Source of the DNA: an uncultured bacterium
GTDB lineage: Bacteria; Zixibacteria; MSB-5A5; GN15; FEB-12
NCBI GenBank assembly: GCA_965372795.1
Contig: CBDVDR010000003.1
Span: forward strand, 1-64,000
Direction: 5' to 3'
Length of the DNA stretch: 64,000 bases
Shown here: positions 17,649 through 26,310 of the stretch, in pieces
Layout of the letters: every line of letters starts with the position of its first letter
How positions within the stretch are numbered: the stretch's first letter is position 1
Notes under the pieces: generated by a model
Told to the model about the DNA's origin: nothing
Databases searched by the model: none
Seen by the model: only the letters and a program-made list of their open reading frames with translations
Translations under genes and position numbers: made by a program

Positions 17649-19871
17649 TTATTTTTTCTTTTTCAAAGAATGGCCTGTTGCCAGTCCAAATATAAACAGA
17701 ACAATAACTAAAATACCCAATGCAAAAATTGTATCACCCGGAGCCCTAAGCCACTTGAGCACAGTTATAGTCGGTGAATATAAAAATTCACTTGAACGGG
17801 CATACCAGTATCCCTTATCAACTGAAGCATAAGTTTGCATAAAACCAATCGGCAGCAAACTAATCAGAACCATCAATGACAAGCCTATATTTATTGACCA
17901 GAATGAAAATTTAATAATTTTTTCATTCCAATCTTCACGGACATATAACACGCGAAGACAGAACAACATCAGACCGATTCCAAGCATACCGTAGACACCA
18001 AACAAAGCAGTATGTGCATGAACCGCAGTTGTGTTTAGACCCTGCATATAATAAAGAGCGATTGGCGGATTAATCATAAAGCCGAATAATCCGGCTCCAA
18101 CCATATTCCAAAAGGCTACCGCGACAAAAAAGTAGATTGGCCATTTATATTTATCTGCCCATTTAGCGGCGCGTGAAAGACGGATATTTTCCCAGGCTTC
18201 AAATCCGATAATTGTCAACGGAGCAACTTCCAAAGCCGAGAAAACCGAACCTAATGCCATGATAGCAGTTGGTGTTCCGGAGAAGTATAAGTGATGTAAA
18301 GTCCCGATAATTCCACCGGTAAGAAAGATTGAAGTTGAAAAGACAACTGCCGAACTGGCACTTTTGGTTTTAACCAGATGCAGTCTAACAAATAGGTATG
18401 CTATAACTGCTGTTGCAAATACTTCAAAGAATCCTTCTACCCAAAGATGTACTACCCACCAGCGCCAATATTCTACAATTGACAGATGAGTGTTTTTTCC
18501 CCACATCAAACCAGCCATGTAAAAACCACCAATGGCAATCACCGAAACCAAAAACATAGTCAACAGATGTTTATGAGGTTGTTCCTTTTTGATTGCAACA
18601 ATAATACACCGTCCAACCAGATAAACCCAGATCAGCAAACCAGCCAGCAAAGCTATCTGCCAGACTCGTCCCAGATCAACATATTCGTAGCCCTGATGTC
18701 CAAAATAAAACCAGGAATCGCCGCCAAGATAACCCATCACTGACAACCACTCACCGGTTAAAGAACCAAGGACAACAACAACTAAGGCACCCAACAAAAC
18801 ATTAACGCCAAGTTTTTGAAATTTGGGTTCAAACCCGGAAGCAAGCGGTGCTATAAATAGTCCGGCCGCTAACCAAGAGGTTGCGATCCAGAAAATTCCC
18901 AGCTGAGTATGCCAGGTTCGGGCAATCGCATATGGAATCCATTTGGCTACGGGTATACCATAAAAACCGGTTCCCTCAACTCCATAATGAGCGATTATCA
19001 CCCCCAATCCCATTTGTATTAAAAACAGTCCGGCAACAACCCAAAAATATTTGATAATTGCTATCTGTGAAGGAGTTGCTATAAATCCAAGCAGAGGGTC
19101 TTCGGTCGGTATCTCTTCAGCCATGGAATCATGTTTCTGTCGGACATTGTAAAAGACTAACAAGGCAATACCTGCCAGTAGCGTCAGTATCGAAAAACCG
19201 GTCCAAATAATTGAATCACTGGTAGGTTTGTTATCAATCAATGGTTCATGGGGCCAGTTATTGGTATATGTTATTTTATCATCAACCCGATGGGTTGATG
19301 CCGCCCAGGCAGACCAGAAGAAAAATGAAGCCATTTTTTCAATCCGTACTGGATCTTTTAAAGTCCCTTCGGGGATTGCGTATTCATCTTTTCCTTTGGT
19401 AAACAATTCCTGATAATATTTCACATTAGCTTCATAAGCTCTATGTCTGACCGGATCCAATACAAGAATATCTTTTGAGGGATCATAAGTATTGGTATTA
19501 AAAAGGATTTTTAGTCTTTCCCGCAAAGCAGCCTGTTTTTCAGGGTGTAAACTATCATAGTCAATACCAAAATCCGCTTGAGCATAATCGTTCAGAATGA
19601 AAACGCATTCACGATGAAGCCAGTCCGCAGTCCAGTCCGGAGCAACATAACTGCCATGTCCCCAGATTGAACCAAGCTCCATTCCGCCCATTGCCTGCCA
19701 AACATTTTGTCCGGCTGTTATACTTCCTGAAGGAACAATTGTAACCCCCTCAGTTGTAATAACACTATCAGGAATAGGGGGTTTTTCCTGATAAATTTTA
19801 AATCCGGACCATCCGAGGATTGCAAACGATATTACAACCACTCCGATAAATCCAATCCATAGTTTTTTCAT
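17649..19871 (-). CDS. norZ: Quinol-dependent nitric oxide reductase (qNOR)
   Basis: GHGSYVAPDWTADWLH, HLWVEGFFE, GTLHHLY and HAH motifs; 740 aa. Confidence 0.95.
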   Translation of the reverse strand: MKKLWIGFIGVVVISFAILGWSGFKIYQEKPPIPDSVITTEGVTIVPSGSITAGQNVWQAMGGMELGSIWGHGSYVAPDWTADWLHRECVFILNDYAQADFGIDYDSLHPEKQAALRERLKILFNTNTYDPSKDILVLDPVRHRAYEANVKYYQELFTKGKDEYAIPEGTLKDPVRIEKMASFFFWSAWAASTHRVDDKITYTNNWPHEPLIDNKPTSDSIIWTGFSILTLLAGIALLVFYNVRQKHDSMAEEIPTEDPLLGFIATPSQIAIIKYFWVVAGLFLIQMGLGVIIAHYGVEGTGFYGIPVAKWIPYAIARTWHTQLGIFWIATSWLAAGLFIAPLASGFEPKFQKLGVNVLLGALVVVVLGSLTGEWLSVMGYLGGDSWFYFGHQGYEYVDLGRVWQIALLAGLLIWVYLVGRCIIVAIKKEQPHKHLLTMFLVSVIAIGGFYMAGLMWGKNTHLSIVEYWRWWVVHLWVEGFFEVFATAVIAYLFVRLHLVKTKSASSAVVFSTSIFLTGGIIGTLHHLYFSGTPTAIMALGSVFSALEVAPLTIIGFEAWENIRLSRAAKWADKYKWPIYFFVAVAFWNMVGAGLFGFMINPPIALYYMQGLNTTAVHAHTALFGVYGMLGIGLMLFCLRVLYVREDWNEKIIKFSFWSINIGLSLMVLISLLPIGFMQTYASVDKGYWYARSSEFLYSPTITVLKWLRAPGDTIFALGILVIVLFIFGLATGHSLKKKK

Positions 19872-20022
19872 TTAGTTATCCTTCCAACTCAAAGCTTTTA
19901 TGAGTTTAAATAATTTAGTTTCATATCTCATTTGTTGTCATTTATTTAAAACTCTTAATAATATAGACTATATATGTAAATTTTTATTCGCATGTCATTG
20001 TCTTATTTACGGCTAAAAAAAC

Positions 20023-20433
20023 TCATAATTCAATATTTGTTTTTGCAAGCATTTCCAAGGTTGTATTTTTAAGAAAATTTAAGTAATCCAAACGGATTTT
20101 GTGCCAGTTATCATGAACAATACAGGGCGATTTACAGGAACATTTGTTCGCTCCCAGAAAGCATTTACTCCACTTATTTAAGTTTTCAATAGGGTCAATT
20201 ATATCATAAATTGCTATTTTAGAAGCCGGCTTGCTTAGTTTGAATCCGCCCTTATACCCTTTGACCGATTCCAGATAACCTGCTGCGGCTAAATTCTTTA
20301 GAATTTTCCCCAGATAGTTTTTTGGGGCTTTTATTTGCTCAGCAATATGATTCGCGCCGACATATTCCCCTTTTTTTAACTTTGCCAACACAGTTACAGC
20401 CAATATTGCATGAATACTACTTTTTGAAATCAT
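20023..20433 (-). CDS. Rrf2-family transcriptional regulator with C-terminal Cys cluster
   Basis: YLGKILKNL...S.KG.KGGFKL wHTH; CFLGANKCSCKSPCIVH; start at MISKSS. Confidence 0.9.
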   Translation of the reverse strand: MISKSSIHAILAVTVLAKLKKGEYVGANHIAEQIKAPKNYLGKILKNLAAAGYLESVKGYKGGFKLSKPASKIAIYDIIDPIENLNKWSKCFLGANKCSCKSPCIVHDNWHKIRLDYLNFLKNTTLEMLAKTNIEL

Positions 20434-20612
20434 TGTTTCTCCTCTAATCACATGTGTATATATGAATAAATATGATTTTGTCAATAAAATAATAATTTTT
20501 TGCGTTTTTCTATTCTCTTTTTGTAATTCAGGGAATAACAAAATCAATATTGTTTATAGAATTTTAATAAGTTATAATAGACTTATACAATCTATATATA
20601 TGGAGGTGTCAC

Positions 20613-21552: not shown

Positions 21553-22425
21553 CTATTTTTTAAGTTTCAGCATATTTTCAATTCCGAAGGCTGAATAAAT
21601 TCCGGTTGTTACTTGATTGGCTGCTTGATTGTACTGTTCAATCGGTTCACCCATGCCGAGCCCATCAACAACGGTTCTGAATTGACGTTCGCCCTGTTGA
21701 GTATTTATCACGTTTAAGATAGCATCAGCAACCATTTGCGGATTAGGGGCGTTTTCACCTTCAAAGTTTTTCGCAAACGCTTCCATTTGCTGATCGGGTC
21801 CTTTGGCAAATTCACCATAAGAGCTGGTGCGCTCAGTATCGGTTGGTTTTAACAAACGTGATGCAAATTCTGTTCCAAATCCACCCGGTTCAATCAGAAC
21901 TGATTCGATGCCAAACCCTGATAGTTCAACTCTGTAATTATCAGCTAAAGCTTCAAGAGCGTATTTCGAGGCATTATATGGTCCAAAAAATGGCATTACA
22001 AACCTGCCCAGTATACTCGAGACATGAATAAGCAGACCTGATCCACGCTTACGCATGTGAGGGAGAATTTCTCTATTCATGCGTTGCACTCCAAAGACAT
22101 TTAAATCAAAGATCTTTTTCCAGTCATCAATAGTGAATGCTTCCTGGAAGCCGATCACGCCAATACCGGCATTATTAATAAGGACATCAACCTGCCCCGC
22201 TTTACTAATTGATTCAGCAACCCCGGAAACCACACTTTTATCATTAGTAACATCTAAATCAATAACGTGAGCGCCTCTTGATTTTAAATCATCAGCAACT
22301 GATTTGTTGCGCCCTTCAGGATCTCTCATTGATGCCATAACGGTATAACCTGCCTTTAGCAGAGTATTGGCTGTGAGTAAACCAAAACCACTGCCTGAAC
22401 CTGTGATCAAAATATTCTTACTCAA
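21553..22425 (-). CDS. Short-chain dehydrogenase/reductase
   Basis: TGSGSGFG, NNAG, YNASK. Confidence 0.92.
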   Translation of the reverse strand: MSKNILITGSGSGFGLLTANTLLKAGYTVMASMRDPEGRNKSVADDLKSRGAHVIDLDVTNDKSVVSGVAESISKAGQVDVLINNAGIGVIGFQEAFTIDDWKKIFDLNVFGVQRMNREILPHMRKRGSGLLIHVSSILGRFVMPFFGPYNASKYALEALADNYRVELSGFGIESVLIEPGGFGTEFASRLLKPTDTERTSSYGEFAKGPDQQMEAFAKNFEGENAPNPQMVADAILNVINTQQGERQFRTVVDGLGMGEPIEQYNQAANQVTTGIYSAFGIENMLKLKK

Positions 22426-22660
22426 ACTATTCTCCTTTTTTTATGAGAATTTGAAATATTTACAACCCTGTTCCACAGGATAGTATAGTATTGCATTATA
22501 TAACACGAACTTATCTCAGTAGTTCCGACCGGAATTTTAATAGCATCTATAATAAAAATATTTTTTATATTGACAAAGATCTTTAATGTCTTTAATGTTA
22601 ACTTTCAGAAGCAAAACTTAATAAATTCTTAACAACCGGCAGTTTGTTGTATCTAATCTG

Positions 22661-22848
22661 CAGGTGTGTGGTAAAATATGTGCAGCTCAAAAACTGACAG
22701 CAAAAAAAAACAAGGACGAAAAAAAACGTTCATTGTACCGAGTGTCTTTAACTTAAGAGGACTCAACAATGCGGTATAGCTGTTGCTGTCAGCTAATTAT
22801 TTATTTGGTAATTATTGCCACCCAATTTAATTGGGTGGCATTTTTTTT
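22661..22848 (+). promoter_or_regulatory. Structured 5' leader / attenuator candidate ending in an intrinsic terminator
   Basis: Nested stems ctgacagcaa/ttgctgtcag and cattgt/acaatg; TTGACA at 22570; terminator directly before the SD. Confidence 0.7.
22816..22848 (+). terminator. Intrinsic terminator upstream of the AsnRS-like gene
   Basis: tgccacccaatt-t-aattgggtggca followed by T8. Confidence 0.85.
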
Positions 22849-22871
22849 AACTTTTTTTGAGGAGTTTTATT

Positions 22872-23867
22872 ATGCGTCACTTTTCAGTTGCTAATGGGGA
22901 CTTTACTCGAACCACTTTGCTCAGATCAAATCTATTAAAAACTACCCGGAAGTGGTTCGAGAATAATTCGTATTTAGAAATTTCCGTTCCCCACATTACC
23001 GGAGCAACCGGATCCTGTGAATGGTTTCCAAATGCTATGCCGGTTACGATGTACAACGACCTGGGACAGCAAGCGGCAATGTTTCTGCGTCAAACCGGGC
23101 AGTTATATCTTGAGGCTTTTACAGTTGCTCACAATCGTGTTTTTACAATCGGCCCTTCTTTTCGACAAGAAAAAAAAGTAACCGATCGGCACCTTTGTGA
23201 ATTTACACTGATTGAATTTGAAGGACGGGATTTCGAACTAACCGGATTGATGGACAATATCGAGAGCTTGATTAAGGCGATGTACTCTATTGCGCAAAAG
23301 GATTTTATGTCTGAGCTTTTGACAAATTATGTTAATATACCGTTTAATCGTATTAAATATGCCGATGCAGTTAAGCTGTTAAATGAAAATGGATATAAAA
23401 TTGAATATGGCGACGATATGGGCAGTATCGAAGAACATGCCATCTGCCGGATACTTGGACAATTGCCTACTTTTGTAACTCATTATCCAAGCAATCCAAA
23501 ACCACAAGAAGGCGGTGTTATTAAATTCTTCTCAATGAAAAGATCAGATAAAGAAACCCTGTGTTGTGATTTATTGTTGCCGATGGTAGGGGAATCAGTC
23601 GGCGGAGCAGTCCGCGAAGGTTCTTCAAAATTATGCAAAAAACAGTTTGAAGAATCATATATGTATGACCATCTGGTGGATGCCGGAGTTGATCCTAAAC
23701 AATTTAGCTGGTATTTTGAGGTCCTCGAAAAAGGACAGGGACAGTCAAGCGGATGTGGAATTGGATTTGAAAGAGTCGTCCAGTCAATCCTTGCTACCGA
23801 AGAAGAAAAAGTCAGCATCAAAGCTGCGATTGAGCTTCCCCGCTCACCAGAGTTTTTAATGCCCTAA
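22872..23867 (+). CDS. Class IIb aaRS catalytic-domain-only protein (AsnRS-like, candidate archaeal-type asparagine synthetase)
   Basis: LRQTGQLYLE, motif 2 FRQE...RHLCEFTLIE, motif 3 GCGIGFER; no N-terminal OB anticodon domain; ATG 22872 with GAGGAG SD. Confidence 0.8.
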   Translation: MRHFSVANGDFTRTTLLRSNLLKTTRKWFENNSYLEISVPHITGATGSCEWFPNAMPVTMYNDLGQQAAMFLRQTGQLYLEAFTVAHNRVFTIGPSFRQEKKVTDRHLCEFTLIEFEGRDFELTGLMDNIESLIKAMYSIAQKDFMSELLTNYVNIPFNRIKYADAVKLLNENGYKIEYGDDMGSIEEHAICRILGQLPTFVTHYPSNPKPQEGGVIKFFSMKRSDKETLCCDLLLPMVGESVGGAVREGSSKLCKKQFEESYMYDHLVDAGVDPKQFSWYFEVLEKGQGQSSGCGIGFERVVQSILATEEEKVSIKAAIELPRSPEFLMP

Positions 23868-23891: not shown

Positions 23892-23920
23892 AAAAGGCAA
23901 AGTTAAAAGCTTTGCCTTTT
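23892..23920 (+). terminator. Intrinsic terminator
   Basis: aaaaggcaaag...ctttgcctttt. Confidence 0.8.
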
Positions 23921-24270: not shown

Positions 24271-26310
24271 ATGTTCAAGCTCAAAGGACTAATTGTCTCA
24301 ATGTTATTATTGACCATGCTGTTCATAAGCTGTGGCGATGATACCAAGGACAATGGAGTCATGAATTCTCAAATGGCGAAACTTGCAACAGGTCTGATTA
24401 ATATTCCTGCTGGTGCAACTATCGAATCAGCAACTATGTTTATTGTTGTACGTGAAGCCAGTGGACAGGAAATTAATGTTCATCAAGTTACATCCGACTG
24501 GGATGAAATGGTAGTTACCTTTAACAATTTCGGTGGAGCTTATGCTCCAGCTGTTTTAGGTACATTTACTGCAGATGCCGTTGGTTGGACATCAGTAGAA
24601 GTTACACAAATGGTAAAGGATTGGGTTAGTGGCGATGCCGTAAATTATGGTGTTTTACTCAGCCAAATTAATCTGAATAATCCAAGAACTTTATTCGGCA
24701 GCCGCGAATTTTCAAAATATGCTCCATACATCGAAGTTTGTTACACTATTGATGCTGGTACTTTCTGTGCAACTACATTATCAATAGCTGATGCCCAGAT
24801 CAATGAACGTTATGGTGATCTTAATTTTGGTCCGGACGAATGGTTAGCATCTGGACGATATCTTGAAACTGAACTTGACAAACAATCGCTGATTAGATTT
24901 GAATTTCCGGTTGTTGAAGAAGAATTAGCTGCCATTGGTGATTTCGTTTGGGAAGACTTGAATCAGGACGGAATTCAGGATGCTGGAGAAACAGGTGTTA
25001 GTGGAGTTACTGTTTATCTTCTGAATTGTCAGGGAGAAATTATTGCTACCACAATTACAAATGCAAGTGGTGCCTACCTCTTTGATCAACTCCAACCGGG
25101 TGATTACAAAATTCAATTTATACTTCCATCGGGCTATGAATTCTCACCACAGGATCAGGGTGCTGACGATGCAATGGACTCAGATGCTGACCCTACAACT
25201 GGTGAAGCAAGCTGTACAACTCTCGATTCGGGTGAATATGACCTGACTTGGGATGCAGGTGTCTATATGCCGGTCATTGATTGCTTCGAATGTGACGGTA
25301 AGATTACAAATCTGACTCTGGAATATCAAGGCTCTCTAGAAGCTTTGGTTGAAGTGTTTGCCAAAGCTGGTAAGGATGGACTTGGTGAATTATTGTTCTC
25401 TGGACCAGTACTCCCAGGTGGCAGTTTCAATATTGTAGGATTCGATAAAAACGGAACTGTTGGCACAGAGATCAGTCTCTTTGTTGATGGCGTTCTGAAT
25501 ACAAAAATCCATACCAGTTGCTCGAAGCCGATTTATATTGGCATGGTAAGTGGCTTCTTCGAAATTCTTGATGGTTACAGCCTTAACGGTGGACGCCTTT
25601 GTCCGGGTGAAGGTGGCGTTGATTGCAGAGAATGTGACGGTAAGATTACAAATCTGACTCTGGAATATCAAGGCTCTCTAGAAGCTTTGGTTGAAGTATT
25701 TGCCAAAGCTGGTAGAAATGAACTTGGTGAAACATTGTTCTCAGGACAGGTACTCTCTGGTGGCAGCTTCAATTTTGTTGGTTTCGATAGACATGGTACT
25801 ATGGGTACAGAGATCAGTATTTTTGTTGATGGTGTCCTGAATACTAAGATCCACACAAGTTGCTCACAGCCAATTTATATAGGTATGATCAGTGGTGATT
25901 TTGAAGTCCTTGATGGCTACAGCCAAAAAGGCGGACGTTTATGCCCAGATGAAGGTGATAATAATGATGGCGGTGATGGACCCTCTGACTGTGATGGTAA
26001 GGTTACAAGTCTGACTCTGGAGTATCAGGGTGCTTCTGAGGCTTTTGTTGAAGTGTTTGCTAAAGGTAAGAAACATAAAGCAGCTAAAGTATTATTCTCA
26101 GGACAAGTACTTCCGGATGGCAATTTAAATATTATTGGATACGATAAAAATGGTACCGTTGGCACAGAGATCACAATTTTTGTGGATGGTATCAAGCATA
26201 CTAAGATCCACACAAGTTGCTCACAACCGATTTATATTGGTATGGTTAGTGGTGACTTTGAGATTCTGAATGGCTATAGCAAAAATGGCGGCCAACTTGG
26301 TTTGGAATAA
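24271..26310 (+). CDS. Surface lipoprotein: DNRLRE/CBM96-like domain, SdrD B-like domain and three Cys-bracketed repeats
   Basis: Lipobox FISC; IPAGATIESAT...WDE; IGDFVWEDLNQDGIQD...DSDAD; 3x CDGK.T.LTLEYQG...IHTSCS.PI. Confidence 0.75.
   Translation: MFKLKGLIVSMLLLTMLFISCGDDTKDNGVMNSQMAKLATGLINIPAGATIESATMFIVVREASGQEINVHQVTSDWDEMVVTFNNFGGAYAPAVLGTFTADAVGWTSVEVTQMVKDWVSGDAVNYGVLLSQINLNNPRTLFGSREFSKYAPYIEVCYTIDAGTFCATTLSIADAQINERYGDLNFGPDEWLASGRYLETELDKQSLIRFEFPVVEEELAAIGDFVWEDLNQDGIQDAGETGVSGVTVYLLNCQGEIIATTITNASGAYLFDQLQPGDYKIQFILPSGYEFSPQDQGADDAMDSDADPTTGEASCTTLDSGEYDLTWDAGVYMPVIDCFECDGKITNLTLEYQGSLEALVEVFAKAGKDGLGELLFSGPVLPGGSFNIVGFDKNGTVGTEISLFVDGVLNTKIHTSCSKPIYIGMVSGFFEILDGYSLNGGRLCPGEGGVDCRECDGKITNLTLEYQGSLEALVEVFAKAGRNELGETLFSGQVLSGGSFNFVGFDRHGTMGTEISIFVDGVLNTKIHTSCSQPIYIGMISGDFEVLDGYSQKGGRLCPDEGDNNDGGDGPSDCDGKVTSLTLEYQGASEAFVEVFAKGKKHKAAKVLFSGQVLPDGNLNIIGYDKNGTVGTEITIFVDGIKHTKIHTSCSQPIYIGMVSGDFEILNGYSKNGGQLGLE

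Follow-up and report, generated by a model that had tools for sequence, protein, structure and literature searches.

The locus and its AsnRS-like gene

We analysed a window of 64,000 nucleotides (nt), i.e., positions 1 to 64,000 of contig CBDVDR010000003.1 from an uncultured Zixibacteria bacterium, and describe here the leader of a gene for a protein related to asparaginyl-tRNA synthetase (AsnRS). The leader lies in an intergenic space (22426-22871) between a divergent SDR oxidoreductase gene (21553-22425, minus strand) and an open reading frame (ORF) of 331 amino acids (aa; 22872-23867). It is a real, conserved and uncatalogued regulatory leader, with a promoter, two short overlapping ORFs and an intrinsic terminator placed just before the gene. 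Its features, including the Shine-Dalgarno (SD) sequences, are listed below with the basis of each assignment.

22570-22575, plus strand: -35 hexamer TTGACA (read in the sequence)
22593-22598, plus strand: -10 hexamer TAATGT, 17-nt spacer (read in the sequence; TAnnnT consensus column in the orthologue alignment)
22602-22625, plus strand: conserved 5' element CTTTCAGAAGCAAAACTTAATAAA, with putative +1 at A22607 (orthologue alignments)
22678-22779, plus strand: leader ORF1, 33 codons, from ATG 22678 to TAG 22777-22779, spanning the long stem-loop domain (overlap layout recurs in orthologues)
22694-22792, plus strand: long-range stem of 10 base pairs (bp), 22694-22703 with 22783-22792, enclosing two hairpins, the second of which sequesters SD2 (minimum-energy and centroid folds)
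22755-22761, plus strand: SD2 (AAGAGGA), 7 nt upstream of the ORF2 start (SD and start position conserved)
22769-22894, plus strand: leader ORF2, 41 codons, from ATG 22769 to TAA 22892-22894 (open frame kept in orthologues)
22777-22795, plus strand: hairpin H (TAGCTG-TTGCTGT-CAGCTA), inside ORF2 and alternative to the long-range stem (6-pair hairpin in the scan)
22796-22815, plus strand: U-rich spacer with TTTGG (22804-22808) and a Y|G step 10 nt 5' of the terminator (motif and composition counts)
22816-22848, plus strand: intrinsic terminator with 11-bp stem, 3-nt loop and T8 (terminator scan)
22859-22864, plus strand: SD (GAGGAG) of the AsnRS-like gene, start ATG at 22872 (read in the sequence)
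22872-23867, plus strand: AsnRS-like catalytic core of a class II aminoacyl-tRNA synthetase (aaRS), 331 aa, without anticodon-binding domain (family searches)
23892-23920, no strand assigned: bidirectional terminator closing the monocistronic unit (terminator scan)

The 331-aa protein matched the Pfam family tRNA-synt_2 (2e-41), and its closest solved structure was the Pyrococcus AsnRS (1x54, E 4e-30). With the NCBIfam model asnS it scored 181 bits against a cut-off of 414. Because this match covers only positions 120-447 of the 451 in the model, the anticodon-binding domain must be missing, and the protein has neither the N-terminal domain nor the score above cut-off that would mark a full-length AsnRS. 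FRQE and GxGxGxER, which we take to be catalytic motifs, are present in the translation. The same genome encodes a separate full-length AsnRS candidate (contig C3:239093) and asnB; the AsnA Pfam model found no match in this genome, and gatB gave a sub-threshold match only. The AsnRS-like gene is a one-gene transcription unit.

Conservation of the promoter and terminator

Orthologous genes provided 66 unique upstream regions, 60 of which are at least 300 nt long. The promoter-bearing leaders among them have an A/T-rich upstream stretch followed by a TTGACA-17-TAnnnT promoter. TTGAC occurs at the same spacing from the leader start in all 29 aligned promoter-bearing leaders, at 36-38 nt from the conserved first A in 28 of them and at 31 nt in L003, which was mis-anchored. 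A consensus promoter scan missed the plus-strand promoter of the present leader, the -10 hexamer of which matches at 3/6 positions only.

The terminator consists of TGCCACCCAAT-TTA-ATTGGGTGGCA at 22816-22840 and T8 at 22841-22848, and ends 10 nt before the SD GAGGAG. An automatic search found a hairpin with T-run 20-100 nt before the start codon in 47 of the 60 unique upstream regions, and a common stem, GCCNYCC...GGRYGGC, in 39. Compensatory changes affect 5 of 9 stem pairs in the orthologue alignment, and a GGAG-type SD precedes the gene in all aligned orthologues. The orthologous terminators end about 30-35 nt before the ATG (the hairpin itself ends 28-38 nt before it in most orthologues), which, like the 10-nt gap here, leaves no room for a promoter between terminator and SD. 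These results bear out the cis-acting, attenuator-type leader proposed in an initial annotation made from the sequence of the window: the leader is conserved upstream of the orthologues, and there is no space for a separate promoter of the gene after the terminator. The elements it had listed (TTGACA, stems, hairpins, terminator and SD gap) were all found again at the same positions.

The leader RNA as a whole folds unusually well. For 22600-22875 the folding energy was -74.6 kcal/mol, compared with -55.1 ± 4.4 kcal/mol for dinucleotide shuffles (z = -4.46), and none of the 200 shuffles folded as well. In the minimum-energy fold, ctgacagcaa (22694-22703) pairs with its perfect 10-bp complement ttgctgtcag (22783-22792), around a ggacg-A8-cgttc hairpin (22714-22731) and a bulged hairpin, cattgt...acaatg (22732-22771); the terminator is part of this fold as well. 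This long-stem domain (22694-22792) shows no sequence conservation among orthologues. The middle part of the leader cannot be aligned and occurs in short (about 75 nt) and long (about 140 nt) forms, so the internal stems emphasized by the initial annotation lie in a part that varies in length and sequence. The RNAalifold consensus structure of the leaders contains hairpin H and the terminator only. A hairpin at the place of hairpin H is found in the short-leader group, with compensatory changes as judged by eye.

Between hairpin H and the terminator the leader is rich in U. The 22 nt before the terminator contain 36% U compared with 23% in the rest of the leader, with a higher value in 21 of 25 leaders, and a UUG(G/C) motif occurs 10-11 nt before the terminator in 13 of 27. 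The signature of a class I or his-type pause (G-10, Y-1, G+1) was considered as well and is only partly present.

Overlapping reading frames across the terminator

The second conserved property of the leader is its translation layout. Orthologous leaders carry an SD (GGAGG, AAGGAG or AGAGGA), followed after 5-10 nt by ATG, GTG or TTG, at about 45-60 nt before the terminator. We scored a composite pattern that required a strict SD with a start codon at 38-66 nt before the terminator, no stop in ORF2 up to the terminator and, 4-17 nt past the start, an out-of-frame stop closing an ORF1 of at least 15 codons. This composite was present in 27 of the 39 standard leaders, compared with 0.19 expected from 200 dinucleotide shuffles per leader; an earlier version with hand-set coordinates gave 19 of 29 against 0.25 expected. 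The region around the translation signals is about 51% identical on average, terminator included.

ORF1 ends 8 nt after the ORF2 start in the window, and the stop is found at exactly this +8 position in 16 of 30 leaders, as TAA (7), TAG (5) or TGA (4). Its length is 16-42 codons in long leaders and 27-28 codons in short ones, where it starts at an ATG inside the 5' element. ORF2 of this locus runs through hairpin H, the terminator and the main SD, and 20 nt into the main coding sequence (CDS), out of frame. Among 22 leaders no in-frame stop was found in 364 ORF2 codons, compared with 6.3% stops in the other two frames. Of 23 leaders, 21 have an ORF2 that crosses the terminator completely; in 14 of the 23 the ORF2 stop falls between -27 and +34 relative to the main ATG, twice as a TGATG overlap. 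The frame in which the terminator is read differs among leaders, so that what is kept is an open frame and not a peptide. Leader L011 (G034) has an ORF2 that is in frame with the main CDS and lacks a stop; judging by its sequence, readthrough translation could give an N-terminally extended protein there.

SD2 is predicted to be mostly paired. Its mean pairing probability is 0.77 compared with 0.58 for the whole leader, and exceeds 0.5 in 25 of 28 leaders, with 0.76 in this window, where SD2 is in the 3' arm of the bulged hairpin (22732-22771). The pairing partner lies at most about 30 nt from the ORF2 start, on its 3' side in some leaders and on its 5' side in the rest.

A frame that stays open across terminators also occurs outside this leader family. 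Orthologues at 52-54% identity (L096-L099; G245 and G249-G251, from two other families) have a different leader that also starts with a TTGACA promoter and contains two tandem terminators (CCCGGC...GTCGGG-T8). A single frame of at least 96-106 codons is open from close to the start of transcription, across both terminators and on into the main start. As read from the sequence, this distant, non-homologous leader appears to follow the same principle, which suggests strong selection for translation-conditional transcription of the gene.

These data bear on the possibility that there is no switch at all. The segment from promoter to terminator could be a small RNA gene in its own right, or its terminator could be constitutively leaky and set a low level of expression, with the ORF pattern as a by-product. 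The segment does have its own strong promoter and strong terminator, from which a stable RNA of about 240 nt would result. In many orthologues, although not in this window, the minimum-energy fold joins the 5' end of the segment to its U-tail, and a search of 22400-22900 against Rfam at E ≤ 10, which gave sub-threshold noise only, had small RNAs as nearest near-misses, far below gathering scores. On the other hand, the segment was never found apart from the AsnRS-like gene, and this gene has no other promoter, given the 10 nt from T-tract to SD. Moreover, the SD/start/stop layout and the long open frame over the terminator are far beyond chance, and the principle recurs in a non-homologous leader. 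We therefore regard the absence of a switch as quite unlikely.

Searches for known RNAs, antiterminators and regulatory codons

No Rfam family was found in the whole window at gathering score, and in 20 orthologous loci the only Rfam match was one tRNA, with nothing in the leaders. This fits the failure of the initial annotation to recognise the leader as a T-box or a common riboswitch. T-box and the known riboswitch classes were without match in 22400-22900 even at E ≤ 10. Neither Rfam nor RNAalifold revealed the covarying helices of a described riboswitch aptamer; the 5' element could still belong to a small aptamer of an undescribed class.

The antiterminator of the initial annotation, in which 22668-22677 would pair with 22811-22821, is indeed the best complement of the terminator 5' arm in this leader (-10.6 kcal/mol), but 15 of 100 shuffles contain an equally good one. 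The pairing does not recur in orthologues. The best upstream complement beat the shuffles (at most 3/100) in just 2 of 21 leaders, at different positions, and no conserved RNA antiterminator helix was found.

The initial annotation had also suggested that the leader senses Asn, Asp or nitrogen status, or tRNA charging. Such a leader would be a classical amino-acid attenuator of the trp or his type, or a T-box-like tRNA sensor, and the AsnRS-like gene downstream, the presence of leader ORFs and a terminator, and a few Asn-containing leader peptides speak for it: ORF1 of this window ends in ...NLRGLNNAV, and ORF2 of L035 contains NNN. However, no amino acid is enriched or universal in ORF2 of 22 leaders. 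Asn occurs in 8 of these and makes up 3.3% of codons compared with 2.6% off frame, and neither Asn nor Asp codons are enriched in the leader frames. ORF1 peptides share no residue pattern either. A NAT codon often stands three codons ahead of the ORF1 stop, which follows from the ORF2 ATG that overlaps there. A conserved 2:3-type antiterminator is missing, Rfam T-box gave no match, and the leader ORF crosses the terminator instead of stopping before it. Furthermore, the genome already has asnB and a full-length AsnRS. Control by Asn or Asp charging was thus already disfavoured and is very improbable; sensing through Asn or Asp codons is not supported.

The conserved 5' element

The 5' element at 22602-22625 is the best-conserved sequence outside the terminator. 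Its family consensus is (C/T)TTT(C/A/T)-A-G/A-R-R-A-C-A-nn-TTAATC, also given as CTTT(C/A)-AGAGACAnnTTAATC, and at least three T directly precede the putative +1 in 25 of 29 orthologue promoters. It is about 20 nt long, not palindromic and located at the transcription start, and it is conserved in the alignments with or without an ATG inside. Searches for duplexes, with the terminator region or with the leader as a whole, gave no consistent pairing partner. Possible functions of the element are a site for a protein or an RNA, a role at the start site or in promoter escape, and the region in which ORF1 is initiated.

One alternative centred on the element is a ligand- or protein-controlled attenuator. 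Here the 5' element, perhaps together with the terminator sequence, would bind a metabolite, a regulatory protein or the AsnRS-like protein and so decide on termination or initiation, leaving the small ORFs secondary. The persistence of the element irrespective of an ATG agrees with this, and the leader ORFs do not account for it. Related sequences exist in distant leaders: L097 and L098 contain UUUUUCAGAGAAAC, about 22 nt further into the transcript, and L099 contains UUUUUCUGAGAAAU. In one subclade (6 of 23 leaders) the sequence at the ORF2 start is similar to that at the start of the main gene itself (AUG CGN/AGR ...), which could be a shared protein site. Nevertheless, we consider this explanation unlikely, as the element has no consistent RNA partner, no aptamer-like core is present, the region between element and SD2 varies from about 75 to about 140 nt and cannot be aligned, and Rfam gave no match. 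A short, non-palindromic element at the transcription start could also be conserved by promoter-escape or start-site constraints.

A predicted translation-dependent attenuator

Promoter, terminator, SD/start/stop layout and open frame are conserved, while no conserved RNA antiterminator or aptamer is present. This combination points to ribosomes, rather than a ligand or tRNA, as the antiterminating agent. We favour, with a probability of about 0.6, a ribosome-dependent transcription attenuator of the pyrBI type with coupled upstream ORFs, a function predicted from the sequence features described above. The leader is then probably not a riboswitch or tRNA sensor. Of the reading in the initial annotation, the unrecognised, conserved, terminator-based cis-regulatory leader stands, whereas the riboswitch or tRNA sensor is probably incorrect and the antiterminator is not supported.

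In the attenuator we propose, transcription would start about 8 nt after the -10 hexamer, near A22607, and the SD of ORF2 would be folded away in free RNA. A ribosome on ORF1 would open the SD2 fold, and with the ORF1 stop 8 nt past the ORF2 start it could re-initiate on ORF2. Translation of ORF2 would run through hairpin H, the U-rich spacer and the whole terminator and end at or near the main gene start. A ribosome on ORF2 close behind RNA polymerase would cover the 5' arm of the terminator, so that no hairpin forms and transcription continues into the AsnRS-like gene. On reaching the main ribosome-binding site, the ORF2 ribosome may in addition bring about coupled translation of the main gene. 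If the leader frames were not translated in step with transcription, the terminator would form and the transcript would end at T22848. According to two articles (PMC5021804, PMC4824070), a tightly coupled ribosome keeps intrinsic terminator hairpins from forming.

We infer that the leader frames are translated and that their translation suppresses termination; the unfolding of SD2 with re-initiation, and a pause of the polymerase at the U-rich/UUGG site, are further predicted steps. As in the trp, his, thr and leu attenuators, ribosome and polymerase could be kept in step by a hairpin with a U-rich site about 10 nt after it.

Several observations weigh against this explanation. Of the standard leaders, 12 of 39 fail the strict composite test. 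Some of these are near misses with weaker SDs (AAAGG, GAAGG, AGAGAG, GGGG), while L004, L015/L039, L061 and L063 have another layout. The leaders are related by descent, so that the shuffle statistics overstate their independence. The SD of ORF1 is poor in this window (AGGTG, 11 nt upstream), and its start codon is in a hairpin arm. At the proposed pause site, G at -10 is found in 4 leaders only, which makes the pause weakly supported. The 5' element is unexplained by the leader ORFs and could be the true sensor, as a protein or RNA site. Finally, if translation switches expression on, it is not obvious how such a design would be linked to the supply of Asn or Asp.

From our analysis, such an attenuator might respond to translation capacity or, like pyrBI, to the level of a nucleotide (UTP). 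UTP sensing is a speculation prompted by the T-run at the start site and by the U-rich tract. A more specific version would be an undescribed kind of relay, in which ORF1 translation unmasks and re-starts ORF2, whose ribosome erases the embedded terminator and hands over to the main gene, with T-run and U-rich tract making the leader a pyrBI-like sensor of UTP and translation coupling. We consider this version unlikely. If it were true, a tRNA-independent AsnRS-like enzyme would be tied to aspartate and pyrimidine metabolism and not to Asn-tRNA supply.

Comparison with known attenuators

Leader-ORF attenuators are textbook biology in enterobacteria. In the E. coli pyrBI attenuator, which responds to UTP and is accompanied by reiterative transcription, the leader ORF reads through its terminator, and the ribosome makes an RNA antiterminator unneeded. 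The present leader is similar: behind a strong promoter it has a leader ORF that runs on across an intrinsic terminator, and the structural gene begins shortly after this terminator. As in a pyrBI-type arrangement, the terminator is located between promoter and gene with no later promoter, and an SD-led ORF passes through it. A U-rich tract, as a candidate pause region, likewise precedes the terminator, and the T-run of at least three at the transcription start in 25 of 29 promoters is a further likeness. The leader differs from pyrBI in having two overlapping leader ORFs instead of one, a sequestered ORF2 SD and an AsnRS-like gene in Zixibacteria, and there is no sequence similarity. Moreover, the T-run stands before, and not clearly after, the likely +1, and UTP sensing would be only a possibility here. 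According to one article (PMC6524683), reiterative transcription needs only a run of three T shortly after the start.

The Salmonella mgtCBR and mgtA leaders are also long 5' leaders with two short ORFs, the translation of which, according to PMC3641672, is thought to set RNA structures and hence the continuation of transcription. Those ORFs sense conditions via particular codons and act through alternative stem-loops. In contrast, the ORFs described here overlap, show no special codons and have the terminator inside ORF2.

With the trp, his, thr and leu attenuators the leader shares the order of promoter, leader ORF and intrinsic terminator. It differs in lacking tandem regulatory codons and a conserved antiterminator, and in a leader ORF that crosses the terminator, so that translation should favour readthrough and not termination. 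The likeness to T-box leaders (RF00230) consists of the position upstream of an aaRS-related gene, the terminator-based expression platform, and a UGGC motif before the terminator with GCCA in its 5' arm. Unlike in a T-box, no Rfam model matches, no Stem I or specifier structure is conserved, and the pairing potential of the UGGC/UUGCC motif is not maintained.

We found no report of leader-ORF attenuators in Zixibacteria, in a full-text search that paired 'Zixibacteria' with 'riboswitch' and was not aimed at attenuators or leader peptides. A literature search turned up nothing relevant on the regulation of AsnRS-like paralogues. The leader would be a conserved case of leader-ORF attenuation with an unusual two-ORF overlap and a terminator buried in the second ORF, specific to one gene and outside Rfam. 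Searches based on RNA structure alone would misread such leaders as riboswitches. The leader also flags a widespread Zixibacterial AsnRS-like enzyme as tightly regulated.

Distribution of the leader and the gene family

Orthologues of the AsnRS-like gene (E ≤ 1e-90) are present in 58 of 285 genomes of the phylum, in 45 of 198 high-quality genomes and in 10 of 20 families. The flanking genes (40 ORFs in 22 loci) were different in every locus and included no conserved neighbour that would hint at a function; leader and gene can thus be regarded as a unit independent of its surroundings.

BLAST, regular expressions and nhmmer found no second copy of the leader in this genome, and the leader's terminator is the sole strong match to the leader profile. 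A profile of the 5' element lacked the power to discriminate: even the leader itself scored only E = 0.6. A covariance model built from the leader's 3' half gave 13 matches at E < 1e-6 in 108 genomes of the family, all 13 of them in genomes that carry the gene. Strong matches for which coordinates were compared were just upstream of it, two of them (G035, G144) at a distance of about 400 nt. Five of eight weaker matches were fetched (G092, G098 twice, G016 and G102:C29), and all five are ordinary gene-end terminators.

Some loci show additional elements or altered terminators. Copies of a REP-like element (core ...CACCCTTCGACTCCGCTCAGGATGACG...) occur upstream of the gene in L005, L037 and L061-L063 (e.g., G035:C1:59721-60267), and in G035 (L005) they sit between leader terminator and gene. 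In L009, L040, L042 and L067 (the G021 group) the standard terminator is decayed and its T-tract broken (TTATTATAT), and a different hairpin with T7 (GGGAG...CTCCC) is located about 95 nt before the start. This looks like terminator turnover within the family.

Members of the enzyme family that carry a source name, from Candidatus Zixiibacteriota and of about 331 aa, are called 'amino acid--tRNA ligase-related protein', 'asparaginyl-tRNA synthetase' or 'hypothetical protein'. At E ≤ 1e-20 the AsnRS-like family falls into 385 clusters of sequences. Other, separate clusters consist of stand-alone AsnRS-like cores with comparable lengths; the phylum recorded most often in them is Bacteroidota, Actinomycetota or Uroviricota (phages), as judged from the few members with known phylum. 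Truncated AsnRS paralogues may thus be more widespread than Candidatus Zixiibacteriota.

Neighbouring genes in the window

A minus-strand promoter-like site, TTGTCA-16-TATTAT (22549-22576, 10/12 matches), stands back-to-back with the -35 hexamer of the leader and is probably the promoter of the divergent SDR gene. Further upstream, at 17649-20547, a gene for a NorB-type nitric oxide reductase (740 aa, minus strand) adjoins one for an Rrf2-family regulator (174 aa, minus strand), which looks like an NsrR-controlled pair for nitric oxide detoxification. The gene downstream of the AsnRS-like gene (24271-26310) codes for a surface-type protein of 679 aa that contains DNRLRE/CBM96, SdrD B-like and DUF7467 domains, and is not kept beside the AsnRS-like gene in other loci.

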